Assembly: GCA_963820825.1 (NCBI GenBank)
Contig: CAWGBN010000006.1
Coordinates: 576,001-640,000, forward strand
Origin: Vulcanimicrobiota bacterium
GTDB taxonomy: Bacteria; Vulcanimicrobiota; Vulcanimicrobiia; Vulcanimicrobiales; Vulcanimicrobiaceae
Direction of reading: 5' to 3'
Length of the DNA stretch: 64,000 nt
Positions 41,533-59,309 of this stretch are shown here, piece after piece (within the stretch, counting starts at the first letter, position 1; every line of letters begins with the position of its first letter). The position numbers were made by a program, and so were the translations under genes. Under the pieces are notes generated by a model, which searched no databases, was not told where the DNA came from, and saw only the letters and a list, made by a program, of their open reading frames with translations.

Positions 41533-43079
41533 CGCCGCAACTTAGCCTCGTCATTCCTGTCTTCAATAACTGGTGGCTGACGCAGCGGTGCCTGCGCGAG
41601 CTCGACGGCCTGCGCGGCGCGGGTTCCGTCGCATTCGAGACGATCGTCGTCGACAACGGATCGAGCGACGAAACGCCGCAAGCGATCGCGGATTTTCCCT
41701 GGGTGCGATACCTGCGGCACGAGACCAACCGCAACTTCGCCGGCGCCTGCAACGCCGGGGCGCGCCTCGCGGAGGCACCGCTGACGCTCTTGCTCAACAA
41801 CGACGCCTATCCGCTCGGCGATGCCTTTACGCCGCTCGTCCGCGCCTTCGAACGTGACGAAGTCGCGATCGCGGGCGGCGCGCTCTTCTTTGAAGACGGC
41901 GTTACCCAAGCCGCAGGTCTCGTCGTTCTGAGCAACGCGCACTGGCATTATTATTGCCGCAATCTACCCGGCGAGCTCGAAACGGTCGGCGATTCGCGCG
42001 ATGCGCTCGGTGTCTCCGGTGCCGCGATGGCCTTTCGCACCGCGTGGTTTCTCGAAAATGGTGCCTTCGACGAGTCGTTCGTCAACGGATTCGAGGACGT
42101 CGATCTCTGCCTGCGCGCGCGAGAGCGCGGAGGCGTCATCGCATACGTTGCCGGCGCGCGCTTTGCGCATTACGAAGCGGCTTCGGCGGGCCGTTTCGAT
42201 CGCGAGGCCGAGAACGAACGGCGCTTCTTCGCGCGTTGGTCGGGTGCGATGGCGTCCTTGCCGCGCACCGCGCGCGGCAGCGTGGGTGCGATCGCCGTTA
42301 GCGCCGCTCGCGATGAATCGCCGCTCCTTGCCGCAGCGCGTGCCGAGCTCGAAGCGGCGCTGCGATCGTTCGGGCATCCGCTCGTGCATCGGGCCGTTGC
42401 GCCATGGCAACGCCTCGACCGCCGGTTTCGGGAGGCCGCGTCGCTCGCGTGGTTCGCCGACGAAGCCGAATCGCCGGGCATCGTGATCGAGCGCGGTGCG
42501 AGCGCAATGACGTCGATTCGAACGCGCGGCGCCGTCGAGCTTGCGGTGGCGTGGCTGCCCTGCGCGTCGCCGCAGCGTCTCGAGCAGCTCGTCGTCCGCG
42601 GCTCGGACGACGCTTCGTGCACGCTCGTCGGAGTCGCCGGCGACGAACGCGGTGAGGCGGCCGCGTTGATTGCATCGCTCGGATATCGTCCGATCGCTCT
42701 CACCGCTGAACGGCTGCTCGGTCGCGAGCACGCCGAGCTCGCGTGCGTCGTGCACGCCGGTCTCACCGACGACGCATCGTTTGGGAACGTCTTGCTCGCG
42801 CAAGCGGGCCTGCCCGCCGTGGTGCTTGCCACGGGTGAGCTGCGACGGCTCTTCGCTCCCGACGTCGCGATCGTTTGCGAACGAGATGCGCTCGGCGATT
42901 CGATTGCGCGGATGGTTAGCGATACCGCGCTACGCCGTCGCTACGGCAGCCTCGTCGCCGCCGACTCGCGTCGGCGGTTCTCGCCGCGCCGCAGCGCGAT
43001 TCGCGTCGTCGATCTGCTGTGCGCCGCGCGCTTCGGGCTCGAGCGTCCCGGCGCCGTGCGCAGCAACACGCCGCTTTAG
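41529..43079 (+). CDS. Glycosyltransferase family 2 with extra C-terminal domain
   Basis: LVIPVFN, VVDNGSSD, NFAGACN, LLNND, FEDVDLC. Confidence 0.85.
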   Translation: MTPQLSLVIPVFNNWWLTQRCLRELDGLRGAGSVAFETIVVDNGSSDETPQAIADFPWVRYLRHETNRNFAGACNAGARLAEAPLTLLLNNDAYPLGDAFTPLVRAFERDEVAIAGGALFFEDGVTQAAGLVVLSNAHWHYYCRNLPGELETVGDSRDALGVSGAAMAFRTAWFLENGAFDESFVNGFEDVDLCLRARERGGVIAYVAGARFAHYEAASAGRFDREAENERRFFARWSGAMASLPRTARGSVGAIAVSAARDESPLLAAARAELEAALRSFGHPLVHRAVAPWQRLDRRFREAASLAWFADEAESPGIVIERGASAMTSIRTRGAVELAVAWLPCASPQRLEQLVVRGSDDASCTLVGVAGDERGEAAALIASLGYRPIALTAERLLGREHAELACVVHAGLTDDASFGNVLLAQAGLPAVVLATGELRRLFAPDVAIVCERDALGDSIARMVSDTALRRRYGSLVAADSRRRFSPRRSAIRVVDLLCAARFGLERPGAVRSNTPL

Positions 43080-43118
43080 GAATCGCGCGCTTAGAAGGCA
43101 GGCTATTCAGTGATTAAC

Positions 43119-43930
43119 TGACGTGAGGTGAGAAAACGGCTCAAGTTGAAACTGTGAGTTCCGGGCCTCTGGCCCTAGGAGACTCACGTGAAGAAAACCC
43201 GCTTCACCGAAGCCCAGATCGTCGCGATCCTCAAGGAGCTCGACGCGGGCACGACCGCGACGGAGCTTGGCCGCCGGCACGGAATTCATGCCAATACGAT
43301 CCGCCTGTGGCGCGATAAGTACGGCGGCCTGGAAACCAGCGATCTGACCCGGCTCAAGCAGCTCGAAGCCGAGAGTGCGCGAAAAGACCGCGTGATTGCG
43401 CGGCTCACGATGGAAGTCGATGCGGTTCGCGAGCTGATCGCAAAAAACGGCTGGGGCCCTCGCACCGAAAAGAAGCTGTGAGGGCGCTTGAAGATCATGG
43501 TCTTTCCCGGGTACGAGCTTGTACGATCATCGGGCAGCCCCGCCGCACACTGTATTATCGGCGCAAGCCTAAACCGCACGACACGGCGCTCATCGAGCGC
43601 ACCAAAGAGCTTGCGCAAGAACGACAGCGTTTCGGTTGGCGGCGGCTGATCATCATGGTGCGTCGCGACTTGGTTGGCGTCGGAGAATCGCGATTCCGCC
43701 GGATTTATCGCGACCTTGGGCTGCAAGTCCACCCGAGAAAAAAGCGTAAGGTTCGGTACGTGCGTGGGAACACGATTGCTGCGGTAGCTCGACCGGACGA
43801 GCGTTGGTCGATCGACTTCATGCACGATCGGCTCGCGACCGGCCGAACAATCCGAACGATGAACGTGGTTGACGACTACACGCGAGAGTGCTTAGCAATC
43901 GATGTCGCTTTCTCGTTTGGGAGCCACGAC
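43119..43930 (+). mobile_element. IS3-family element 1, truncated at 3' end
   Basis: orfA 43188-43481 (MKKTRFTEAQI), A6C slippery site 43443-43449, orfB from 43478 with WSIDF..VVDDYTRECL, broken off after FGSHD. Confidence 0.88.
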
Positions 43931-44400
43931 AGTCTGGGCGTTGGAGCTGATGTACAAAGAGAAGCTGCATCCGGCGATGTTCCACGAACTGCAGGACGGG
44001 ATCGTGCGGCTCGATCCCGAATTTGACGGGACTCCTCGCTTCGGTGCTCATGCCGAAGTTCCGGAAGGCCGCGCTAGAGCTCGCGAATGACTACGCCAAG
44101 GAGCTCCGCCGGATTACCGTGCCGCGTCGGCTGGTTCGGGAAGGTCCGAAGCCGATCGCGGAGCGGCGGGGATCGTGGGAACGCTCGGCGTGCGGGTATT
44201 GCAAAAAGCCGCTGCCCCGCAAAGGGCTGAAATACTGCGGACGCGATTGCTATCTGCGCTATAGCATCGAGGTGGCGAAGCCGATCGCAAAGGCGCATGC
44301 GCGTCTCGCGGAAATGCGCGCAATCGGCCTCAGGCCGGGGCACGGGGGCGAAGCCGCGCGGAAGCGAGGCGCGATACTTGCGGAGAATAATCGCCGCGGG
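43931..44400 (+). pseudogene. Probable C-terminal remnant of a solo Cas1 (casposase-like) gene with Zn-finger
   Basis: Across one frameshift (~44022): WALEL..FHELQDGIVRLDPE-LTGLLA..CGYC..YCGRDC..GHGGEAARKRG; resemblance from memory only. Confidence 0.45.
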
Positions 44401-44401
44401 A

Positions 44402-45415
44402 TCACCGGGCGAAAAGCCGCCCTTTTGCAGGGCTGACAACCGCACCCTGGGCGTCGTCGAGTCCGTCTGTAATTTTTATTAAAGCTCTGCCGCCAGCCGG
44501 ATAATCGTAGAGCAAGGCATCGGACATGGCCTGCCTCTTGATGTAGATATTAGGCGCGATAATTACGTCATTTTGAATCCAGAACTGCTTAACGTATCTT
44601 GCACCACTCTTAAGCTGGGTGATACCGACGCCGTTCCCGTTGTATCCGCTGATTGCGAATTCGTAGACGCTATTCAATTGGTCGCCGATCGCGAGGTATT
44701 TGCCATCCCACTGGACTCCGCCGGGAAATCCAATATATTCATCCACCGTAATATTATTGAGTGACCTCTTGCCTTTGCCTAGCTCTGCCAGCCCGAAGTG
44801 TCCGCTTCCCGGTGCAGTTATGCCGTCGACAAAGAGGTCTCCAACGTTATCGTACCCGCAAAAGTAAAACTGATAGAACGCCGAATCTCCGTAGGTGGTC
44901 GGTCTTCCACGAGCAGATTGATAAATTTCAACTGTCGGCGACGAGCCAAAGCCCTCGCTTCCAACGGCCAAATTACCAGTTGTCGGGTCGACCGCACAGC
45001 CGACTGGATCCTTGGTTGGGCTAGCAAGTGTATTTAGGCGTATCTTGCCACCGTGTGCGTATTCAAAGATCTTTCCATAACCGATATCTACAATAAACAC
45101 ATTACCGCTCTTGTCGACGCACATACCAGTTGCAAGATAAAAATGCTTGAGAGTGCCCACAAGCTTACCGTGAGGGTACGAGTAGATCCGAACAGTTTTA
45201 CCGTTTGATATATAGAGCAAATTTTGCGATTTCGCCCCGGGCAAAATCCACGATGCCCCATTTTTACGCGCTGCTGAAAGGTAGCTGCCCGCAGAACTCG
45301 TAGAAATATCTAAATCGTGCGCCGTCATGACGGGAGCTGCTGGCAAGCCGCAAGCAGCAAGTGCAGCGGCCGCGCCGAGAGCTAATACGCAGCGGCCGTT
45401 ATACCGACTTATCAT
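44402..45415 (-). CDS. Lipoprotein with NHL-like beta-propeller repeats
   Basis: LAAC lipobox; SWILPGAKSQNLLYIS, CVDKSGNVFI, CAVDPTTGNLAV, GGVQWDG; AT-richer than flanks. Confidence 0.75.
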   Translation of the reverse strand: MISRYNGRCVLALGAAAALAACGLPAAPVMTAHDLDISTSSAGSYLSAARKNGASWILPGAKSQNLLYISNGKTVRIYSYPHGKLVGTLKHFYLATGMCVDKSGNVFIVDIGYGKIFEYAHGGKIRLNTLASPTKDPVGCAVDPTTGNLAVGSEGFGSSPTVEIYQSARGRPTTYGDSAFYQFYFCGYDNVGDLFVDGITAPGSGHFGLAELGKGKRSLNNITVDEYIGFPGGVQWDGKYLAIGDQLNSVYEFAISGYNGNGVGITQLKSGARYVKQFWIQNDVIIAPNIYIKRQAMSDALLYDYPAGGRALIKITDGLDDAQGAVVSPAKGRLFAR

Positions 45416-46050
45416 TTAGTCTCTCCCCTCGCTAGAACTGACGAGGAGTCCATTCTACTTCACGAAGCAGCCCTCATTTGCAGAATCTTCAAAACTAAAG
45501 ATATTCCGGTAACCTTGTATACGAGGCGAGCAGCCCGCGCTGTAGCCGGTTCCTAATGACTCGTTTCGCGAGCCAGCGCTGCAGTTATTGACGGGTACCC
45601 ACTTACGCCATCGAAGATAGGTGGAGAGTTTTCGTAGTTGGAGGTCTCCCCGTTTTTACTCCGCGGCCTCTCCAGAAATGACGGCGAGCTGAGTGATGTT
45701 CTTCGCGCGCCGGGCGTACTCTTCCGGTGAGAGATTTCCCAGCGAGCTGTGCGGGTGATTGGCGTTGTAATCGCGGCGCCACGCCGTGGCCTGCACGCGG
45801 GCATCCGCAAGCGATCGGAACCAATTCGGGTTGAGCAGTTCCTGTCGCACGCGGTTGTTGAACGATTCGCAAAAAGCGTTATCTGACGGGCGCCCGGGCC
45901 GCGAGAAGTCGAGCTTCACCCGATTCCAGTAGGCCCACTGATCCAGCTGCAAAGATACGAACTCTGGGCCGTGATACATACAAGACGGGGCGCTGCCCCC
46001 ATGGCGAACGGAGGTGTATCTGACTCATCTCCGCTGGAGGCAACGACCCT

Positions 46051-47313
46051 ATGGCAAAGTTCCGTGCTGCTCCAACGACGCCCGCCTGGCTCGCAATCGA
46101 CGTCGCCAAAAACCGACACGTGGCGCTGCTGGAGGACGAGGCCGGCATTCGCCGGCGTTTGACAGTTCCAAACACGCAAGAAGGTTTCGACGAGTTGGCA
46201 GGGATTCTGGCGCCGCATCTTCCCTGCGAGGTCGCGCTGGAACCAACCGGAGACTATCACCGACCCCTGGCGAACTTCTTGCTCCGGCGAGGCCACCGCG
46301 TTCATTTCGTATCGTCGATCGCTACAAATCGGACGAGAGAAGCGCTGTTCAACTCGTGGGATAAAAACGATCCGAAGGATGCGCAGGTGATTCTGCATTT
46401 GCTCAAGAGCGGTACAACGCAGGTGTTCGCCGATCCACTGCAACGTGGCAACCAAGATCTTCAGGAACTGCTCGGTACCTATCGGCAGATCACCGACCGA
46501 AAGACGCGAGCCTACCATTCGCTGATGACGCACTATTTGCCGCTGTACTTCCCGGAAGCAGAGCCCTTCCTGAGCAATCCGCGCGGCGAGTGGTTCTTGG
46601 AGGTCATGCGCATAGCGCCATGCCCTTCCACGGTCCTTCAATATACCAAAAGGACATTCGTCAAAAGGTTTACTGCAGCGGGAGGGCATTTTACATCTCG
46701 GCAAAGTCTCGTCGCCAGCTACTACGAAATTGCCAAGGAAAGCGTGGGAATTCCAGTGGCGGCGGATTCGCAGGCCGCCCAGATGTTCCAACTCGCGATT
46801 GAGCAGTACATCGGCCTCATGAAGCTTCGACGGCAGCTTCAGGAGCTCATTGACGCACAACTCGAGAACAACATCGATTATCAGCGCCTGCGCTCTATCC
46901 CTGGAATCGGCCCTATTGTTGCTCTAACGGTTCTCGCTGAAGGCGGAGATTTACGCCGCTTCAGCCACCATCGCAAATTTCTTAACTACTGTGGCCTTTC
47001 TTTGTCGACGATGCAATCCGGAACGTCACGCGGCCGACCGCAGCTCTCCAAACGCGGCAATGCTCGACTGCGATGGGCCTTCTGGATGGCAGCCAATGCT
47101 GCCATCAATCAGCGCCGAAACTCGTTTCGGAAAAAGTACGACGACTACGTTCGTCGCGATCCACTGGATGCCGATCTCAAAAGAAGAGCGTATGTCGCCG
47201 TAGCAGCGAAGATTGCGCGCGTCGCTTACGGCTTGATCAAATCTGGAAAAGAGTACCGCCACTATTTCGAAGCGGCGGTGCACGACGGGAGAATCCCTTC
47301 GCTGGGCCGTTGA
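46051..47313 (+). CDS. IS110-family DEDD recombinase/transposase
   Basis: LAIDVAK, ALEPTG, KNDPKDA (DEDD); IPGIGP, QSG, SKRGNARLR. Confidence 0.93.
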   Translation: MAKFRAAPTTPAWLAIDVAKNRHVALLEDEAGIRRRLTVPNTQEGFDELAGILAPHLPCEVALEPTGDYHRPLANFLLRRGHRVHFVSSIATNRTREALFNSWDKNDPKDAQVILHLLKSGTTQVFADPLQRGNQDLQELLGTYRQITDRKTRAYHSLMTHYLPLYFPEAEPFLSNPRGEWFLEVMRIAPCPSTVLQYTKRTFVKRFTAAGGHFTSRQSLVASYYEIAKESVGIPVAADSQAAQMFQLAIEQYIGLMKLRRQLQELIDAQLENNIDYQRLRSIPGIGPIVALTVLAEGGDLRRFSHHRKFLNYCGLSLSTMQSGTSRGRPQLSKRGNARLRWAFWMAANAAINQRRNSFRKKYDDYVRRDPLDADLKRRAYVAVAAKIARVAYGLIKSGKEYRHYFEAAVHDGRIPSLGR

Positions 47314-47430
47314 GGCGACTACGACCTCGTAGATAATGCTCGGATCTCCCGATCGGCAGCAAACTCCGTTTTGAGCTCGGTGAAGGCTCGTTTCCGAGAC
47401 CTTGTGTCATCATGGTTGGAGCTATTGCGT
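47283..47430 (+). ncRNA. Predicted bridge/seek RNA (copy A)
   Basis: Two stem-enclosed internal loops matching the target (CTGGGCCGTT, GATAATG) and the donor junction (AGCTCG, ATCATG); boundaries approximate. Confidence 0.7.
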
Positions 47431-48414
47431 CGTCGAGGGGCATCTCGGCAAGGGTGTGCAAGCTCGGCTTTGCTGTCGACGGGCATCGTTATGCCTACTA
47501 GTGGGGTTGACTTTCGTACTTAGCTCGTTATCGCAGTGGATCCGTTGCGGTGATCCACGCTCGGCAACGAGGCGGCGAAGTACCTCGACGACGTCGGTCG
47601 ATTTGAACCCCGAGGCCACCTCGAGGGCAAGGCTCTCGCGAGTAAATGAATCGACTATGGTTAAAAGGCGAATCTTGGTGCCGTCAGCGAGCACGTCGTG
47701 CATGAAGTCCATGGCCCAGCTCTGATTTGGCGCGCTGGGTACGACCCGTTCTGTCCGCACGACTGCGGCGCGCCGGCGTTTGGGTGTTTTCGTACGGATT
47801 GCGAGGTTTTCTTCGCGATAGATCCGCCGCACGCGCTTGCGATTGACCTGCCAGCCTTCACGCCGCAACAGGATCGTGATCCGTTCGTAGCCGTAGCGAA
47901 TGCGCGTGTGAGCGATCTCCTTGATCCGAGCGCGCAGAATGGGATCGTCGCGCTTGACGGGGCAGTAGTGCACCATCTTGCGATTGATGTCGAGTACGAC
48001 ACACGCCCGCCGTTCGCTCAAGCGCCAGGCCTCGCGCACCTTTGGCAGCATGACTGTGCGGCGCACCTGCCTCACCACTTTTTTTTAACGACGTCCTGCA
48101 AGACCTGACGATCCAGCGTCAGATCTGCAACGAGTCGCTTAAGGCGCGCGTTTTCGTCACGTAGCTGACGCAACTCGCGGATCTCCGGCGTTCCCAAACT
48201 GCCAAAACGCTTGCGCCAGGCATAAAACGTTGCCTCGGAGATTCCCAACTTGCGGGTGATATCGGCGATCGGCGTGCCGGCTTCGGCTTGGCGCAGGGCT
48301 GCGGCGATCTGCTCGTCGGAGTAGCGGGACTTGCGCACGGGCGAACCTCCTGTCGGTCGGTGTTCGCCGCCATTTTCTAGTTATCCGTGGCGTAAAATCT
48401 TGGGAGAAGACCCC

Positions 48415-48900
48415 GGTCCCTACGGCGTCCGTGTCATAGGTGCAGCTTGCAACAACTCCCTCTTTTTCAGTGGAGGCGCTGGCGGAGAATTTCTGACGCC
48501 GACGCAGCAGTACGGCATCTACGTCGAATCCGCCACGCAGGAAAACCTATTCATTCATAATTGCGATCTCACCGGCAATCTGAGCGCGGCGGTGTCGGCC
48601 GCAAGCCCTCCGACAAACCTGCAAATTACGGGGTGCGCTGGCTATAACGACCAAGGCGTCGTGGTCCGGAACGTTATCCCGCCGACGGCCACCACCTTTT
48701 TCAGCTACAGCTTTACCACACCGTATTACGGCCCCGTCGAGTTTTACGTCAGCGGGGTCTCGGGAGCAATCTCGCAAATCAGCATCGACGGGCACGCAAC
48801 GCCGCTGAAATCAGGGAGCTTCTTTCTCGCCCCTGGCGAGAACGCCGAGATAACGTGGTCGGGAGTGTCCTTCCCGATTTTCCTGATGATCGGGAAGTGA
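48415..48900 (+). pseudogene. C-terminal fragment of a beta-helix (pectin-lyase-like) protein truncated by IS3
   Basis: QQYGIYV, NLFIHNCDLTGN, LQITGCAGYN; the frame has no native start. Confidence 0.5.
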
Positions 48901-49143
48901 CTAGCGATCTCTAAACGGCAGAGCGTGCACTCTAAATGTGCTGAGGCGCCGGGCGAGTGGCAACTGCTGAGACCGACTGACGCGTAACCTCGGTCGCTGG
49001 TCAAAACCGGAACTGCGCGGGCTCTTCTGTAGTATCCCATGGGATTTGCCGCGGGAGGTCACCCTGAGCCTTTGGCAGCATCCACGATCCGCCGCGCTCG
49101 GCTACACCCTTCGCGATAGTTTTTAGGTCTTGGAGAAAATCGA

Positions 49144-49335
49144 ATGGCATCTGCAGCGCTCCGCCATCAGTCGCTAAGTATAAGCGCTGCCGCGACATTG
49201 CTCGCGGGGTGCAGTGGATCACAGTCGCCGATCGGCGCGGACGGTGCATCGGCCGCAAGAACGGCCTTCTTACTCGCCGTGGGGAAGGTCCTGGAGACCA
49301 TGCTCGACGAGTTGCGTACTATTACAACGATCTAA
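49144..49335 (+). pseudogene. Lipoprotein N-terminal remnant
   Basis: LSISAAATLLAGCSGSQSPIGA signal and lipobox with no mature domain. Confidence 0.45.
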
Positions 49336-49348
49336 CCAGAGGTGCCCC

Positions 49349-49804
49349 TTGAACGAGCTGGGAGCGAACGAAGACCTACGCGAAGCGCGGCAAAGTTACT
49401 TCGAGCAATACGCGTTTCCGCTTTTTAGCCACATCGACTTTCGCGTGAGCAATGCGCAGGCCGTCCGGCCTTTTTACGACGCACTCATGGCGCTGTTTGG
49501 CACCGACCCCACGACCGTACGCGTTGCGCGCTACGGATATACTCGGCGCTACGGATCAGTCCGTGCTGATTTCTTCAACGTTTTCGAAGATCCACAGGCA
49601 CGCCCAACGCCAACGCGCATCGCTTTTGCGGCGCCGAGTAGAGCTTTCGTAGACGAGGTCGCGCGCGTCGTCCGCGAACACGATGCTAGGGATGTCGAAG
49701 GTCCCGCCTATTTCGAGCAGCACCACCCAACGTTCTACGCGGTCTTCTTCGAAGACCCGTTGGGCAACCGCTTCGAGGTTTGCCATCACCGGATGGATAG
49801 ATAG
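49349..49804 (+). CDS. VOC family protein
   Basis: SHIDFRV, RIAFAA.SR..VD, YAVFFEDPLGNRFEV; TTG start after GAGGT. Confidence 0.78.
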   Translation: MNELGANEDLREARQSYFEQYAFPLFSHIDFRVSNAQAVRPFYDALMALFGTDPTTVRVARYGYTRRYGSVRADFFNVFEDPQARPTPTRIAFAAPSRAFVDEVARVVREHDARDVEGPAYFEQHHPTFYAVFFEDPLGNRFEVCHHRMDR

Positions 49805-49871
49805 GCAGCGACAGTATCGACGCCGACGAAGCTCGCAAAACCTCGCATATTGGCGGAAACGGCGTGATATC

Positions 49872-50282
49872 TCAACTCATTGGATTAGCATTCGGCGCCT
49901 TTGAACGTCGCAGATTCCATAACCCTTGCGCTGAGAGGATAGCGGAGAAGACCGAGGTCACGGCGAGCGCGAGGAGAGTCCAAACGAAGAAGAACGCTCC
50001 ACTGGACTCAGCGAGCGTGCCGGCCGGCAGTCCTCCTGCTCTGCTCACGTGAACAGTGAAAACTACCATGCCCGCGACCGATCCGAGGAGCATGATCGCG
50101 TGCCCCGATCGCCGCTCAGCGAGCACCAGCGCCCCGTATAGCCAGATGACGAGGACAGCGATCGCCACGACGTTTGAGGCCGGTGACCTATCGGTCCCAT
50201 AGACGATATCATCCGTCAAGTGAAGCGAGAGGAGGGTGATCGAGAGCAGAGACATGATGGTTAAGACATTGTTGCGCTTCAT
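49872..50282 (-). CDS. Hypothetical four-TM membrane protein
   Basis: Hydrophobic helices, HLTDD motif. Confidence 0.6.
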   Translation of the reverse strand: MKRNNVLTIMSLLSITLLSLHLTDDIVYGTDRSPASNVVAIAVLVIWLYGALVLAERRSGHAIMLLGSVAGMVVFTVHVSRAGGLPAGTLAESSGAFFFVWTLLALAVTSVFSAILSAQGLWNLRRSKAPNANPMS

Positions 50283-50537
50283 ATGGGATAAGTTTACTAC
50301 ATAACGGCCTTCAAACTTCCGGTCGGGGCCCACCGCGGTCTTTCGGGGACATTTTCGCCCGCCGTTGTCATAGATAACTACATTGGTTAGAAGTGAATAG
50401 TTGGCCGACCTTAAGCACTCTCGTTTGTCTTCGAGCGAAACAAGAGCGTCGAGCTCAGTGGCGTTGGGATAGGTTTCTCGGAGCGGAAACTGGAGGCCAG
50501 AATGCCGTGCGCTTGGCGCTTCTCGGCCATCGCGCCA

Positions 50538-51026
50538 TCAAAGATCCTGAGCCTGGACAAGATTACAGGAAAATGCAAGGGTTTTACTCTTGTTGTAGAC
50601 CGCCAAGGCGACTAAGCCGACGGTATCAGCATACGCCGTCACAGACGTGGTCCCAGTCCTGTCGTTCGTGTCGGCATATATCTGAACTGCGTAACGACCC
50701 GACGGTACCGTGATTGTTGAACTGCCGCTCCACGTCCGGACGTTAGTCGATCCGTCGGGTTGCGTCAGCCGTAACTCAAATGATCGCGATGGCCGGAAAG
50801 GAACGGCAATTGGCGTCGTCGGGAAGGAACGTAGTGAGCCATCGGAGTTGAACACACCTACGAACAAGATGTCATGTGCGCCATCGTACGCCTGTAAAGT
50901 GGTATCGGATAAAGTCGACGGGAAACCGTTATACGTCTCGGTAACCGTAAAGTAGGGGCCATCATCGCCATAGCGGTGAATTTGCATTGTATAGTGGCGC
51001 CCCGATCTGAATCGGCTCTTTCGCAT
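50538..51026 (-). CDS. Chimeric ORF: IS3 orfA start fused to a beta-rich protein fragment
   Basis: Begins MRKSRF like the IS3 orfAs; remainder unrelated. Confidence 0.4.
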   Translation of the reverse strand: MRKSRFRSGRHYTMQIHRYGDDGPYFTVTETYNGFPSTLSDTTLQAYDGAHDILFVGVFNSDGSLRSFPTTPIAVPFRPSRSFELRLTQPDGSTNVRTWSGSSTITVPSGRYAVQIYADTNDRTGTTSVTAYADTVGLVALAVYNKSKTLAFSCNLVQAQDL

Positions 51027-51100
51027 GTGAGTCTCCTAGCCGGGCTGTACGCCCGAGAACTCACAGTCTCCGTCTGTCCCGAATCCGCGCCTACCGGTCA
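51008..51100 (-). mobile_element. IS3-family left-end remnant (element 4)
   Basis: ACTGTGAGTT..CTAGGAGACTCAC-start matches the left end of element 1. Confidence 0.7.
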
Positions 51101-52103
51101 GGACCCAGATCACTGGAAATCGCGGGGTTTGAGCCCCGGAATCTAGTCCAATGGGAATTGTGGGTTTCCGGCCAAGATGGCCTGCAAAGGAGACCCGCAT
51201 GCGCAAGCGACGCTACACCGAAGCGCAAATCGTCGCGATCCTTCAAGAGCTCGACGCCGGCCGATCCGCAGCTGAGCTCGCTCGCAAACACGGCGTTCAC
51301 GTCAACACGCTGCGACTGTGGCGAAGCAAATACGCCGGGCTCGACATCAGCGATCTCACCCGTCTGAAAGAGCTCGAATCCGAAAACTCGCAGATGGAGC
51401 GCATCATCGCGCGTCAAGCCCTCGAGATCCGCGCGATGTCCGAGGTGATTCGAAAAAACGGGTGGGGCCCTCAGCGCGCAAGGAAGCGGTGAGGGCGTTA
51501 GAGGCCGAGGGGATGAGCCAGCGGCAAGCGTGCCGCCTCGCGACCTGCCCCCGACCGACCGTACGATACAAACCACGCAAACGCCCCGGCGACGAGCACG
51601 TCCGCGATCGGTTGCGTTGCATTGCGCAAGAGCGGCCGAGATTCGGATGGCGCCGGCTTAAGATCCTGCTCAAGCGTGAAGGCCTCGTGATGAACCACAA
51701 ACGCCTGCGCCGCCTGTATTGCGATGAGCGATTGCAGGTGCGACCGCGCAAGAAGCGACGCGTGCGATTGGTGCGCGGCAACGTTTCACCGGCTCCGACA
51801 AAGCTCAATGAAGAATGGGGACTGGATTTCATGCACGAAATCCTCATGACCAAGCGCAAAGTGCGGTTGCTGACGATCGAGGACCGCTTCAGCCGCGAAG
51901 GTCTCGCGGTCGACCCAGACTTTTCGATCACCAGCCGCCGCGTAATTCGAACGCTCGATGACATTGCCGAGATCCGCGGTTATCCCACGCGCCTTCGCGT
52001 TGATAACGAGCTAAGTACGAAAGTCAACCCCACTAGTAGGCATAACGATGCCCGTCGACAGCAAAGCCGAGCTTGCACACCCTTGCCGAGATGCCCCTCG
52101 ACG

Positions 52104-52251
52104 ACGCAATAGCTCCAACCATGATGACACAAGGTCTCGGAAACGAGCCTTCACCGAGCTCAAAACGGAGTTTGCTGCCGATCGGGAGATCCGAGCATTA
52201 TCTACGAGGTCGTAGTCGCCTCAACGGCCCAGCGAAGGGATTCTCCCGTCG
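52104..52251 (-). ncRNA. Predicted bridge/seek RNA (copy B)
   Basis: Same sequence as the copy A region. Confidence 0.68.
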
Positions 52252-53481
52252 TGCACCGCCGCTTCGAAATAGTGGCGGTACTCTTTTCCAGATTTGATCA
52301 AGCCGTAAGCGACGCGCGCAATCTTCGCTGCTACGGCGACATACGCTCTTCTTTTGAGATCGGCATCCAGTGGATCGCGACGAACGTAGTCGTCGTACTT
52401 TTCCCGAAACGAGTTTCGGCGCTGATTGATGGCAGCATTGGCTGCATCCAGAAGGCCCATCGCAGTCGAGCATTGCCGCGTTTGGAGAGCTGCGGTCGGC
52501 CGCGTGACGTTCCGGATTGCATCGTCGACAAAGAAAGGCCACAGTAGTTAAGAAATTTGCGATGGTGGCTGAAGCGGCGTAAATCTCCGCCTTCAGCGAG
52601 AACCGTTAGAGCAACAATAGGGCCGATTCCAGGGATAGAGCGCAGGCGCTGATAATCGATGTTGTTCTCGAGTTGTGCGTCAATGAGCTCCTGAAGCTGC
52701 CGTCGAAGCTTCATGAGGCCGATGTACTGCTCAATCGCGAGTTGGAACATCTGGGCGGCCTGCGAATCCGCCGCCACTGGAATTCCCACGCTTTCCTTGG
52801 CAATTTCGTAGTAGCTGGCGACGAGACTTTGCCGAGATGTGAAGATGCCCTCCGCTGCAGTAAACCTTTTGACGAATGTCCTTTTGGTATATTGAAGGAC
52901 CGTGGAAGGGCATGGCGCTATGCGCATGACCTCCAAGAACCACTCGCCGCGCGGATTGCTCAGGAAGGGCTCTGCTTCCGGGAAGTACAGCGGCGATTTC
53001 TGAGTCATCAGCGAATGGTAGGCTCGCGTCTTTCGGTCGGTGATCTGCCGATAGGTACCCGGCACTTTGCTGAAGATCTTGGTTGCCACGTTGCAGTGGA
53101 TCGGCGAACGCCTGCGTTGTACCGCTCTTGAGCAAATGCAGAATCACCTGCGCATCCTTCGGATCGTTTTTATCCCACGAGTTGAACAGCGCTTCTCTCG
53201 TCCGATTTGTAGCGATCGACGATACGAAATGAACGCGGTGGCCTCGCCGGAGCAGAAGTTCGCCAGGGGTCGGTGATAGTCTCCGGTTGGTTCCAGCGCG
53301 ACCTCGCAGGGAAGATGCGGCGCCAGAATCCCTGCCAACTCGTCGAAACCTTCTTGCGTGTTTGGAACTGTCAAACGCCGGCAACCCAGGCCTCGTCCTC
53401 CAGCAGCGCCACGTGTCGGTTTTTGGCGACGTCGATTGCGAGCCAGGCGGGCGTCGTTGGAGCAGCACGGAACTTTGCCAT
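52221..53481 (-). pseudogene. IS110 recombinase, frameshifted copy
   Basis: Split over several ORFs; multiple indels relative to copy A. Confidence 0.8.
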
Positions 53482-53880
53482 AGGGTCGTTGCCTCCAGCG
53501 GAGATGAGTCAGATACACCTCCGTTCGCCATGGGGGCAGCGCCCCGTCTTGTATGTATCACGGTCCGGAAAACGTCGCCGGCGCGATGCTGCAGTGGTCG
53601 ATCGATCACAATGTTCTGCTGCACTTCATTGATCCGGGAAACCCGCACAGAACGCCTGGATCGAGTCCTTCAACGCTCGCGTGCGCGACGAGTTCCTCAA
53701 CGTGCAAGTCTTCAGGACTCTCCTGCAGATCCGCGAAGAGGCCGATGCATGGCTCGTGGATTACAACGAGGTTCGGCCGCACTCGTCGCTAAACTATCTT
53801 ACGCCCAAGGAGTTCATCAAAACTTTTCTACACCAATCCCACAATCGCCGGTGGACTAAGAAATGGGCTCAAACCCCCGC

Positions 53881-54234
53881 TAAATGTAGGTTTGCCGGAA
53901 CGCAACTAGCGCGGATCGCCAACACCGCGGCATCGAGTTCGCCGAGCCGCACTATTCCTGCGTAGTGGACGTGCCCGGGATCAGACATCAGAAGGACGCG
54001 CGGATGCGGATCGTTTGCTACGACGTGTTTGTTGGTCAGTAGAAAGCCGTAACCACGCTGTGACTCGATGCAAAATGCGGTACCAAAGCCAAAGCGCTTT
54101 CCCACCCCTGCCGCAACTAGCGCCAGAGATGGTTTGATCTGCGCGTAGGTCGAAACGTCATCAGCGAGCGCCGCGTCGTGCATAACGAGTGCAGTCAGTA
54201 TCGCGGAGAGCGCCGATAGCCGTCGAAAACTCAT
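53881..54234 (-). pseudogene. Trypsin-like serine protease N-terminal fragment, disrupted by IS3
   Basis: Signal peptide, GTAFCI, LTNKHVV, LDAAVL; catalytic Ser motif absent. Confidence 0.7.
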
Positions 54235-54296
54235 ACCCTGCCGGAAAGGCGTTGGTGCGTTGCTATGGGGCATCGTATCACTCGTTTAGCGAACGT

Positions 54297-55880
54297 TCAA
54301 TGGTCCGCGTCGGGCGGGCCGTAACCGCCGCCGCCCGGGGTCTGAATCGTTAGCACGTCCCCCGGTTCGAACTCGAAGGTCGTCTTTGCCGGCAGCGGCG
54401 TCTCGACTCCGTCGCGCGTCAGCGAGTGCCGGCCGCACGCGCCGGAGCCGCCGCCTTGCGCGCCGGGCGCGCCGCGCACGTGACGATCGGCGAGCAGCGT
54501 GGCACGAGCCGAAGCTTCGACGAGCTCGATCGAGCGAATCAAACCGTTGCCGCCACGGTAACGTCCCGCACCGCCCGTGCCATCGGCGATTTCGTAGCGC
54601 ACGACGCGCAGCGGGTACTCCCGCTCGATCGCTTCGATCGGCGTGTTGAGCGTATTGGTCATGTGGCAGTGAATCGCGTCGATCCCGTCGCTGGTCGGTC
54701 GCGCTCCCATTCCGCAGCCGTTGGTCTCGTAAAAGGCCCAGGTCGCGCCATCGCCGCGCGTTCCGCCGAGCATGACGTTGCTCATCGTTCCGCCGCTGCT
54801 CGCCGGAACGCGATGCGGTACCGCACGGGCGAGCGCCTGCAGGACGACGTCGGCGTTGCGCATGCTCGTCTCGACGTTTCCGCCTGAGACCGGGGCGGGG
54901 CGTCGCGGATTGAGCAGCGATCCTTCGGGCGCGTAGACCTCGACCGGACGAAAGCAGCCGTCGTTCATCGGAATCGTCGGATCGGTGACCGCGCGCAGCG
55001 CGTAGTGCACGCCCGAGAGCGTAACGCCGAAGACCGCATTGAGCGGTGAGGCAAGCTGCGCGCTCGTACCGGTATAGTCGAGACGCGCGCGTCCATCGTG
55101 CAGCTCGAGCCGCACCGCAATGCGAATGCTCGGAACGCCGTCGTCGTCTTCGAGGTAATCTTCGGCGAGGAAGACGCCGTCGCCGATCGAGCGCAACGCG
55201 GCACGCATGCGCAGTTCGCTTTCGTCGAGTATTCGCGCCGTCGACGCTTCGAGCATCTCGGTTCCGTAACGCTCGCAGAGTTCGAGCAGACGCCGCTCGC
55301 CGGTATAGTTGCCGGCGACCTGCGCGCGCAGATCGCCGCTGCGCGCGTCGGGCGTTCGCGAGTTCGCGCGGAAAAGCCCGACGGTTTCGCCGAGAACGCG
55401 ATTCTCTCGAACGAGGCGCAGCGGTGCGACGACGAATCCTTCCGCGAAGAGATCGGCAGCTTGCGCCGGCATCGAGCCGGGCACCGAGCCTCCGACGTCG
55501 GCATGATGCGCTTTATTTGCGGCATAACCGATGAGGCTGCCGCGGTGAAAGACGGGGCGCACGAGCGTGACGTCGTTGAGGTGCGTGCCGGCGATATAGG
55601 GATCGTTGGCAACCCACATCTCGCCCTCGCGCACTCCGCCGTACTCGCGCTCGACGATCTCCAACATTCGCTGCAGACCCCACGGCAGCGAGCCGAGGTG
55701 CACCGGAATGTGCTCCGCCTGCGCGATCAATCGTCCGAAGCGGTCGAAGAGCGCGCACGAATGATCGAGCCGCTCCTTGATATTCGGCGAATACGCGGCG
55801 TTGCGCACCGCAATGCCCATCTCTTCGGCCGCGTAGACGAGCGCGTTCTTGATCACCTCGCTCGTGATCGGATCGGTCAC
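54297..55880 (-). CDS. Hydantoinase B/oxoprolinase family
   Basis: AYSPNIKERLDHSCA, HIPVHLG, NDPY..GTHLND, HHADVGG, TNTLNTP, TPGGGG. Confidence 0.92.
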   Translation of the reverse strand: MTDPITSEVIKNALVYAAEEMGIAVRNAAYSPNIKERLDHSCALFDRFGRLIAQAEHIPVHLGSLPWGLQRMLEIVEREYGGVREGEMWVANDPYIAGTHLNDVTLVRPVFHRGSLIGYAANKAHHADVGGSVPGSMPAQAADLFAEGFVVAPLRLVRENRVLGETVGLFRANSRTPDARSGDLRAQVAGNYTGERRLLELCERYGTEMLEASTARILDESELRMRAALRSIGDGVFLAEDYLEDDDGVPSIRIAVRLELHDGRARLDYTGTSAQLASPLNAVFGVTLSGVHYALRAVTDPTIPMNDGCFRPVEVYAPEGSLLNPRRPAPVSGGNVETSMRNADVVLQALARAVPHRVPASSGGTMSNVMLGGTRGDGATWAFYETNGCGMGARPTSDGIDAIHCHMTNTLNTPIEAIEREYPLRVVRYEIADGTGGAGRYRGGNGLIRSIELVEASARATLLADRHVRGAPGAQGGGSGACGRHSLTRDGVETPLPAKTTFEFEPGDVLTIQTPGGGGYGPPDADH

Positions 55881-58000: not shown

Positions 58001-58411
58001 TTAGAACGTTACGCTATAGGTGCCGTTATTCGGGTTGCAGTTCGAGCCCCGCCGCATATCCATACGGAAATGGGCCGTCGTGCTGCCGTTTCCGGCCTGA
58101 TTCGATCGCGTCCAATCGTAGCCGAAGGTATAGGATTGTCCCGGCGCAAGCGGCGGAATGCCGCGATCGTCATGCTTGACTTGATCGACGTAGACGTCGA
58201 CGAACTGCAGAGTGTCCGACGGTTGCCGCTGACTTCCAAGATTGGTCACCGTGCCGGTTATGTGGTAGATGCTGACCGAACCATTGCTGGTAACGTTTTT
58301 GACGACGACCGAGGTGATCGCGGGATTCGCTCCCGTACAAGTTCCTGCCCGCGTTGCCGTCGGCAAAAGCGCGCATAGGACGAGAGCGATCGACGAGGAA
58401 CGAACGATCAC
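58001..58411 (-). CDS. Secreted CARDB/Ig-like protein (paralog 3)
   Basis: Signal peptide; C.GANPA.TSV, GTVTNLG, GIPPLAPG. Confidence 0.7.
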   Translation of the reverse strand: MIVRSSSIALVLCALLPTATRAGTCTGANPAITSVVVKNVTSNGSVSIYHITGTVTNLGSQRQPSDTLQFVDVYVDQVKHDDRGIPPLAPGQSYTFGYDWTRSNQAGNGSTTAHFRMDMRRGSNCNPNNGTYSVTF

Positions 58412-58901: not shown

Positions 58902-59309
58902 CTAAAACGTCAGGTTGTAGTCGGCATTGCCCGGATTGCAGTTCTCGCCTTGCTGGAGGACGATCCGGAAGAGCAACGTCGTCGAGCCGCTCGCCGAATC
59001 GACCGAGCGCGGCCAGTCGTACGTAAAGGTGTGGGTTCCTCCGGCCGGCAGCGGCGGCACGCCACGCGAATCGAGTTTCTGTCCGTCGTACATGATGTCG
59101 ACGGATTGCAGAACGTTCGCGGGCTGGCCCGACCCGCCCAGATTCGTCACGGTCCCGACCAGGTGATAATGATTCAGCCGTCCGTCGCTCGTGTGGGATT
59201 TTACGACGACCGAGGTGACCGCGGGATTCGCTCCCGCGCAGGTTGCTGCAGCCGCGGCGGCGGGCGCCAGCGCGACGATAAGAAGAGCGGAGATGAGCGT
59301 TCGAAGCAC
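58902..59309 (-). CDS. Secreted CARDB/Ig-like protein (paralog 1)
   Basis: Same motifs as the two downstream genes. Confidence 0.7.
   Translation of the reverse strand: MLRTLISALLIVALAPAAAAAATCAGANPAVTSVVVKSHTSDGRLNHYHLVGTVTNLGGSGQPANVLQSVDIMYDGQKLDSRGVPPLPAGGTHTFTYDWPRSVDSASGSTTLLFRIVLQQGENCNPGNADYNLTF

Follow-up and report, generated by a model that had tools for sequence, protein, structure and literature searches.

An IS110-family element occupies the second-aspartate codons of IS3 transposases and carries a predicted guide RNA at its 3′ end

The 64,000-nt window analysed here comes from the metagenome bin of a soil bacterium of the Vulcanimicrobiota (Eremiobacterota), comprising 9 contigs and 2.98 Mb at 85% completeness, and it contains two copies of one IS110-family insertion sequence (IS), each lying inside the transposase gene orfB of a different IS3-family element, in antisense orientation and precisely between the Asp-Asn and Gly codons of the motif that holds the second catalytic aspartate. 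All four copies of the element in this genome occupied that position, the same position recurred in relatives from many phyla, and the 3′ end of the element contained a conserved and covarying predicted RNA with segments corresponding to both strands of the target and to both ends of the element. Taking these observations together, we consider it very likely that this is an active IS110-family element whose recombinase is guided by an RNA from its 3′ end and which inserts at the second-Asp codons of rve-type transposases.

Element copies and their IS3 hosts

Copy 1 occupied positions 45970..47528 on the forward strand, including a CGT at each junction around a body at 45973-47525, and contained an intact recombinase gene (46051..47313, forward strand) of 420 amino acids (aa), the product of which matched DEDD_Tnp_IS110 (PF01548; E 7.6e-21, 74.9 bits with a cut-off of 29) and Transposase_20 (PF02371; E 8.8e-28, 97 bits with a cut-off of 21.3). 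This combination of an N-terminal DEDD/RuvC-like domain with a C-terminal Transposase_20 domain, together with insertion at one specific site where only the 3-nt CGT is shared and no duplication of the DDE type is present, places the element in the IS110 family. Copy 2 lay on the reverse strand at 52006..53562 and was decayed, with several indels and a longest open reading frame (ORF) of at most 276 aa. A repeat search of the window returned a single long inverted pair (45963-47532 and 52002-53569, in five collinear arms), and when the two copies were aligned with their flanks, identity began and ended sharply, with CGT at each junction. The net insertion of copy 1 was 1,556 bp and the body common to both copies was 1,553 bp, with non-coding ends of 81 nt on the left and 213-216 nt on the right. 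Copy 2 was 98.65% identical to copy 1, its reading frame being broken by clustered substitutions and indels; the differences fell into five or six short clusters rather than being evenly spread, which could reflect local assembly or polishing error, or patchy conversion.

A blastn search of the genome recovered four copies of the element, two in the window and one each on C2 (100% identical) and C5 (99.87% identical), and the recombinase ORFs of the latter two were identical to that of copy 1. Across the genome the copies were 98.7-100% identical, and the presence of three copies at 99.87-100% identity with an intact ORF suggests, at the level of sequence, that the element moved recently.

Both hosts in the window showed the domain organization of the IS3 family, with HTH_Tnp_1 in orfA and HTH_21, rve and rve_3 in orfB. 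In the host of copy 1 (host element 2, reverse strand), orfA and the part of orfB up to the Asp-Asn codons lay at 47529..48400, the outer end being approximate, and the 3′ part of orfB from the Gly codon onward lay at 45639..45969 (rve_3, E 2.8e-27), where position 45639 is also the point at which contigs from public sequencing runs start to match. In the host of copy 2 (host element 3, forward strand), orfA and orfB up to Asp-Asn lay at 51125..52005 and the 3′ part of orfB at 53563..53877, the reading frame of which is shifted beyond the point of insertion.

With the element removed, the IS3 strand read GAT AAC GGC CCA GAG at copy 1 and GAT AAC GGT CCG GAA at copy 2, exactly as a first-pass annotation of this DNA had reconstructed them, and the claim of that annotation that two ~1.55-kb IS110 copies sit at the same site in divergent IS3 elements, with an ACG core at each junction and antisense to orfB, was confirmed for both. 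The copy on C2 lay in a third IS3 type at GAC AAC/GGC CCA GAG (a slash within a target or junction sequence marks the insertion point). Across three IS3 types, 4/4 genomic copies were antisense to orfB at Asp-Asn/Gly and had the same junctions, with CGT (ACG on the IS3 strand) at both, and no copy lay at an unrelated site. The hosts themselves differed: that of copy 1 had no blastn-detectable similarity to the others, and that on C2 aligned with the copy 2 host along only a part of its length, at ~75% identity, so that the divergence between the copy 1, copy 2 and C2 host types requires at least three independent insertions.

Empty sites were found both within the genome and outside it. Three uninterrupted paralogous sites were present in the genome, one of the copy 1 type on C8 and two of the copy 2 type on C2 and C9. 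In addition, contigs of 4/4 public soil or wood-decay runs (4 studies) carried the copy 1-type IS3 and joined position 45969 directly to 47526, a skip of 1556 bp with 3 ambiguous letters, and differed from the window on the left side by 9 differences per 331 letters. Since they lack the 1556 bp, these contigs represent a natural empty site, which fixes the boundaries of the element. The empty-site IS3 copies on C2, C8 and C9 (L094-L096) were themselves decayed by frameshifts or truncations, and the only orfB found to read through intact was the one interrupted on C5, after reconstruction.

The uninterrupted orfB fragment on C8 aligned to the catalytic cores of retroviral integrases, with mouse mammary tumour virus (MMTV) integrase as the best match (E 1.3e-4), and the first D motif and the C-D-N-G-P-E-F stretch of orfB were aligned with its D and D-N motifs, respectively. 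In the IS3 family these two residues are established as the first two members of the catalytic D,D,E triad, in agreement with the first-pass assignment of the target Asp to the second D of the IS3 triad. The N-terminal halves of the interrupted transposases stopped at rve profile position 72-74 of 102, in IS3 hosts and in the IS481-like hosts described below alike, and splitting orfB at Asp-Asn/Gly would necessarily inactivate the host transposase.

A predicted RNA at the end of the recombinase gene

The last codons of the recombinase gene and the adjoining right end of copy 1 contain a predicted bridge RNA or seekRNA (47293..47440, forward strand), in which the helices H0, hpT, H1, H2 and hpD enclose a target loop and a donor loop. 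From 5′ to 3′ along the forward strand, the 5′ strand of helix H0 (47293-47296) is the first element of the predicted RNA and precedes the left-target guide CUGGGCCGU (47302..47310), which lies over the codons Leu-Gly-Arg just before the stop codon, followed by hairpin hpT (GAGG...CCUC) and the right-target guide GAUAAUG (47332..47338), which lies within GUAGAUAAUG. After GUAGAUAAUG come the 3′ strand of H0 and the 5′ strands of H1 and H2, then the left-donor guide GAGCUCGGUGA (47373..47383), hairpin hpD, the right-donor guide AUCAUGG (47409..47415) and the 3′ strands of H2 and H1, which extend to about 47440.

Across the relatives described in the next section, the conserved RNA block began inside the end of the recombinase gene, and between the window element and a relative from the same genus the first ~115 nt of the right end were far better kept than the coding region (73% at the DNA level). 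A hand-written 32-pair structure was evaluated on a MAFFT alignment of 59 distinct relatives, in which 81.2% of cells were paired compared with 70.3% after shuffling, and the covariation score was 0.420 compared with 0.220 for shuffled alignments (0/500 shuffles as high) and at most 0.241 when the partners were slid. Changes on both sides were seen in 28/32 pairs, and pairing reached 99.1% in hpT, 94.6% in hpD and 89.1% in H1. Applied to the same alignment, RNAalifold recovered hpT and hpD with compensatory changes and did not recover helices H0, H1 and H2.

A contig from a public soil run (X2), belonging to a distant relative, matched the window at 90% identity or more over 47304-47338, the target-guide core, which indicates that this core is strongly conserved; the loose ends of the contig matched Acidobacteria-type elements (L057 and L070). 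A CCACYUGG motif followed both strands of H1 (alignment columns 89-96 and 220-227) and changed in parallel at both, and its 3′ copy could form, as modelled, a small alternative hairpin with the 3′ strand of H1, possibly acting as a switch. Two other candidates for the target guide were rejected, namely a CGTTAT hairpin near 47460-47475, which lies in a region that is not conserved in relatives, and the bases right after GAUAAUG, which are one strand of helix H0.

The left-target guide CUGGGCCGU exactly reproduced the top-strand sequence of the left flank and core at both copy 1 and the C2 copy and, having the same sense as the recombinase-gene (top) strand, can pair with the IS3 coding strand ACGGCCCAG. 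With the target of copy 2 and the C5 copy, it formed 7 Watson-Crick and 2 wobble pairs, the wobbles falling on the third base of the Pro codon and of the Gly codon. GAUAAUG was complementary to the top-strand sequence of the Asp-Asn codons, with one wobble at the middle core base for CGTTATC and a second wobble added for CGTTGTC at the C2 site, and all three local target variants are pairable with both guides if G·U wobble is allowed. The two target guides read opposite strands and overlap on CGT, in the same way as published bridge-RNA guides overlap on the core (Durrant et al. 2024, PMC11208160). Across relatives, GUAGAUAAUG was nearly invariant, as was the Asp-Asn target, and so too was GTAGATAATG of the right-target guide; the left-target segment varied (…GGGCCGU, …GUGCCGU, …GAGCCGU).

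Segments corresponding to the element's own ends were found in the donor loop. In the window element, GAGCUCGGUGA has the same sense as the right end TTAGCTCGT, and AUCAUGG is complementary to CC-GT-GAT at the left junction. Across relatives, the 5′ donor segment covaried with the right end (GCUC with TAGCTC, GUAC with TAGTAC, GGAC with TAGGAC and GCCC with TAGCCC), and the 3′ donor segment NNNAUGG was complementary to CC-RT-NNN at the left junction, its triplets covarying in at least five combinations (AUC with GAT, ACC with GGT, ACU with AGT, GCU with AGC and GUU with AAC). The predicted RNA thus combines segments for both target strands with a second loop for the ends of the element, the arrangement that characterizes bridge RNAs and seekRNAs.

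Near the right end, TTGACT (47507..47512, forward strand) is a candidate −35 box that would lie 17 nt before the start of the left end once the ends are joined. TTGAC followed by T or A is kept at this place in many relatives, and its spacing meets a TATA-like hexamer in the left end upon joining, by which a junction promoter would be completed across a circular form, analogous to the junction promoters reported for ISEc11 and ISEc21 in the published description of these elements (PMC11187229); no circle-junction reads were seen in the public runs, which were covered at the level of contigs.

When the two target guides were combined into a wobble-tolerant 13-mer, 7 intact sites were found in the genome, three of them in IS3 and four in ordinary genes, with about 9 expected from base composition; the four occupied sites, every one of them in IS3, also fit the pattern. 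One of the four ordinary genes, a sulfatase-like gene (C6:246331, L097), encodes ...S-T-D-N-G-P-E-N... at a site that fits both guides and is unoccupied.

Relatives across phyla and the genomic surroundings

One scan of species-representative genomes yielded 583 encoded relatives, the best 80 of which (45-78% identity) were analysed and came from Eremiobacterota, Acidobacteriota, Nitrospirota, Planctomycetota, Alpha- and Betaproteobacteria, Bdellovibrionota, Fibrobacteria and others. The flanks of these 80 loci were searched by tblastn with the four local orfB sequences. An IS3 orfB lay antisense at the flank of 52/80 relatives (both flanks in 40, one flank in 12), and only one of these 52 loci (L016) had a same-strand orfB match as well. 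Breakpoints fell at Asn (N-terminal end) or Gly (C-terminal start) at 48/80 loci, and at both in 23. Without any use of flank information, a search for the left-end motif placed the junction in 75/82 loci, and antisense translation gave G-x-E-x for 62 of the 74 translatable left flanks, most often as GPEF (21), GSEF (15) or GTEF (8). The same arrangement was present on complete plasmids of the cultured bacteria Sulfitobacter sp. W074 and Sphingobium sp. WTD-1, and on the megaplasmid of Methylorubrum extorquens AM1.

At 16 loci none of the four orfB queries matched despite at least 300 nt of sequence on both sides. A Pfam scan of 29 fragments, covering the flanks of these 16 loci and of partly matched loci, identified IS481-like transposases (L020, L021, L027, L046 and L063), a Mu-like transposase (L051), other rve proteins (L050, L062 and L067) and two hosts that are clearly not transposases, a pyridine-nucleotide disulphide oxidoreductase (L042) and a HAD hydrolase (L084), and several other scanned flanks had no Pfam match. 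The insertion of relatives into IS481-like, Mu-like and ordinary genes indicates that the target is a short sequence that rve transposases conserve, not IS3 itself. The first-pass proposal of site-specific insertion into the catalytic codons of IS3 is therefore supported by 4/4 genomic copies, by 52/80 relatives and by an RNA that matches both target strands; the part of it that needs revision is the view of IS3 as the target as such.

Among distinct guide-target pairs, the left junction was CC/AT in 33/66 and CC/GT in the other half, and the right motif used was always C/GTT. The guide has a U opposite the variable base of the left junction and can pair with either form, and the middle core base may be inherited from the donor.

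Among 60 genomes of the same genus, order and class, a homologue (E up to 1e-30) was found in only 1, a 77%-identical relative from the same genus; its contig ended inside the left end, and its right flank was a long non-IS3 ORF with ...F-D-N at the junction. The clade is sharply bounded, plasmid matches dropping from 44-51% identity to 28%. Judged by sequence, it includes the ISYps2 family: an ISYps2-family transposase on the Yersinia pseudotuberculosis plasmid pGDT4 (NC_011759.1) was 44% identical to the window recombinase (E 3e-107) and had the same 3′ RNA motifs, and this copy sits at GATAAC/GGATCT in a non-IS3 gene. An ISYps2 DNA probe gave 2 partial matches among 5426 E. coli genomes.

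In the window, positions 44000-54000 had a G+C content of 56-59%, compared with 62-69% elsewhere, and contained three IS3 elements, the two IS110 copies and ORFs without a Pfam match; this region is probably an island of mobile and foreign DNA. The third IS3-family element, at 43110-43935, consisted of orfA and a partial orfB (rve) cut by unrelated sequence before the D-N-G site. A 108-nt direct repeat with 70% identity was located at 58281-58388 and 59182-59289, the copies being 901 nt apart.

Proposed mechanism, alternatives and known systems

Based on these observations, we propose that an RNA starting in the last three recombinase codons and running ~150 nt into the right non-coding end, presumably made by the element and bound by the recombinase, adopts a structure with two guide loops. 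In the target loop, CUGGGCCGU would pair with the IS3 coding strand over the Gly-Pro codons and the core, and GAUAAUG with the opposite strand over the Asp-Asn codons, so that the two guides together would specify ~13 nt, GAYAAC/GGNCCR, with G·U wobble absorbing synonymous third-base differences in the target. The donor-loop segments, one per element end, would hold a circular excised form, a presumed intermediate, and recombination, with cleavage presumed to occur around the shared CGT, would invariably put the element in antisense orientation between the codons for Asn and Gly, cutting the host transposase in two next to its second catalytic Asp. Published experiments indicate that IS110 and IS1111 elements use such RNAs (PMC11187229 and PMC11208160). 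Protein function constrains the motif, which is why it recurs in numerous divergent IS3 elements and, for the relatives, in IS481-like and Mu-like elements, and such a recurrent motif provides a multi-copy, non-essential landing site. The first-pass term 'safe harbour' is an interpretation of this kind, and the insertions may also affect the fitness of the host or of IS3.

Several observations weigh against this proposal. Covariation between the left-target guide and its own target at variable positions was modest: over positions −5 to −12 there were 189 identities in 66 distinct pairs compared with 174.4±6.6 for permuted targets, 38/2000 permutations reached or exceeded the observed value, and many loci had mismatches. 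The modelled base pairing alone leaves the exclusive occupancy of IS3 unexplained (4/7 sites in IS3 were occupied versus 0/4 in host genes, numbers too small to test), a pattern that fits either selection against insertions in useful genes or an extra requirement. The CC/AT left junctions in half of the relatives are unexplained by a simple identical-core model. Helices H0 and H2 were only 69.8% and 58.1% paired in the MAFFT alignment, a result that is partly due to the alignment not being structure-aware, and an Rfam scan of 43000-54500 at E up to 1 gave no match. Moreover, copy 2 and the C5 copy lie in hosts that were 99.2% identical over 1202 nt at different loci, and this pair could be a single insertion that was moved along by IS3.

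The alternative that survives best concerns the role of the element rather than its targeting, namely that it is kept as a host-beneficial suppressor that disables DDE transposons and is not a neutral user of a landing pad. Every inspected IS3 copy with the site in this genome was interrupted or independently decayed, and the clade is spread over many phyla; however, IS3 decay is common anyway and relatives also interrupt ordinary genes, and we regard a suppressor role as unlikely. It is, in any case, compatible with RNA-guided insertion at the second-Asp codons and would not replace it.

A further possibility is that the recombinase protein itself reads DNA sequence or shape at D-N-G, with the 3′ RNA serving mRNA stability or translation control or acting as a terminator. 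With lengths of 9 and 7 nt, the RNA-target matches are short and mainly cover invariant positions, and both the modest covariation of the target loop and the unoccupied matching sites in host genes would be accommodated by protein recognition. By contrast, at least five different triplets link the donor segments to the element ends by covariation, the two loops are built like those of published bridge RNAs and seekRNAs, and in experimentally tested members, one of which has the same target, the RNA is required and reprogrammable according to PMC11187229, all of which makes recognition by the protein very unlikely.

A single ancestral insertion of IS110 into IS3, with the composite multiplied by duplication or by an IS3 transposase acting in trans and with no target specificity at all, is conceivable for the copy 2 and C5 pair, given their nearly identical hosts at different loci and the intact IS3 ends around the insertion, which would permit mobilization in trans. 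As a general explanation, however, it is refuted by the divergence of the hosts and by the flanks of the relatives, and we consider it highly improbable: the copy 1 host has no blastn similarity to the others, including the second host in the window, and the C2 host has ~75% over a part, while the IS110 copies within them are 98.7-100% identical, and in other phyla 52/80 relatives are flanked by antisense IS3 orfB, with same-codon breakpoints in 48/80. An assembly artefact from mis-joined repeats, suggested by the nature of the assembly (a 9-contig metagenome bin, 85% complete) and by the odd clustered differences of copy 2, has next to no probability, since three contigs share these junctions, which recur in 52 further assemblies of other projects and on complete plasmids from cultured bacteria, and public contigs contain the exact empty site.

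Insertion by RNA guidance at this target has a precedent, of which the first-pass annotation was unaware. Siddiquee et al. (2024, Nat Commun, PMC11187229) showed that the E. coli element ISEc21 uses a seekRNA to target the second-D codons of IS3 members. This seekRNA originates in the non-coding region upstream of the gene and is recovered together with the purified transposase; movement depends on it, and it can be reprogrammed. The comparison that follows is with the published description of ISEc21. Similar to the window element, ISEc21 has a short RNA matching both target strands, with the bottom-strand match 5′ of the top-strand match, and inserts without target duplication, and a circle with a junction promoter is reported for it (PMC11187229). 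By contrast, its RNA lies upstream of the gene, whereas that of the window element lies downstream and overlaps the stop codon, and its published hosts are a few enterobacterial IS3 members, whereas the hosts found here cover many phyla and include IS481-like and Mu-like elements (PMC11187229). Low-stringency tblastn on plasmids did not yield ISEc21, and a Klebsiella IS110 element tried as a stand-in for ISEc21 was rejected, as it was not flanked by IS3.

The window element also resembles the IS1111 group (ISEc11, ISKpn4, ISPa11 and ISPst6), the members of which have a long non-coding region and a guide RNA downstream of the recombinase gene; its own long non-coding region is likewise downstream (213-216 versus 81 nt). 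It departs from that group in other respects. The subterminal inverted repeats of 11-13 bp found in IS1111 elements were absent, the best repeat in the window element being 6 nt and out of register; in-register inverted repeats of 9-16 nt were present in ~15/50 distinct relatives, and the closest relatives had no clear repeat. In IS1111 guides the top-strand complement comes 5′, whereas in the window element that order is reversed, the bottom-strand complement at 47302-47310 preceding the top-strand complement at 47332-47338, a comparison that takes 'top' in the published account to be the strand carrying the recombinase gene. The IS1111 members target repetitive extragenic palindromic (REP) or attC sites, and the window element targets a coding motif.

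As in IS621 (Durrant et al. 2024, PMC11208160), the predicted RNA has two loops, for target and donor, and left and right guides that overlap a short core. However, according to that paper, IS621 has its RNA in the left end, a 2-nt core and a REP-like target, whereas the window element shares a 3-nt CGT, and half of its relatives have CAT at the left junction. IS4321/IS5075 and IS1383 are also IS110-family elements that insert into other mobile elements, as judged by the titles cited in PMC11208160. A search of the supplements of Durrant et al. for the target 8-mers returned chance matches only, in oligo pools and unrelated alignments, and, PMC11187229 aside, the titles and abstracts returned by the literature search pointed to no description of the clade with a 3′ RNA or of its target, ISfinder, which may hold target notes, lying outside that search.

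Both the class of mechanism and the class of target are thus already published, and nothing is overturned; what is added is a clade-wide picture, hosts beyond IS3, and a covariation-backed 3′ bridge RNA or seekRNA with its first guide in the last codons of the recombinase gene. The habit of ISEc21 is not an enterobacterial curiosity but extends to a large clade whose members reside for the most part within the catalytic codons of other transposons and occur in bacteria from soil, freshwater and the sea as well as on plasmids of cultured Alphaproteobacteria. The conserved RNA, its four guide segments and dozens of natural target variants form a comparative data set that can be used to examine the tolerance of bridge RNAs and seekRNAs to mismatch and wobble, which is relevant to genome-editing tools. 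More tentatively, and with somewhat more doubt than conviction, we speculate that targeting of the second Asp has arisen or been kept in two differently organized IS110 lineages, one with a 5′ RNA (ISEc21) and one with a 3′ RNA that overlaps the stop codon, and that the present clade is a general hyperparasite of DDE transposons (IS3, IS481-like and Mu-like), with wobble-tolerant guides fitted to a protein-constrained motif. The element provides a natural case of one mobile element disabling another, and if the hyperparasite reading is true, the abundance of one class of mobile elements would be checked by another.

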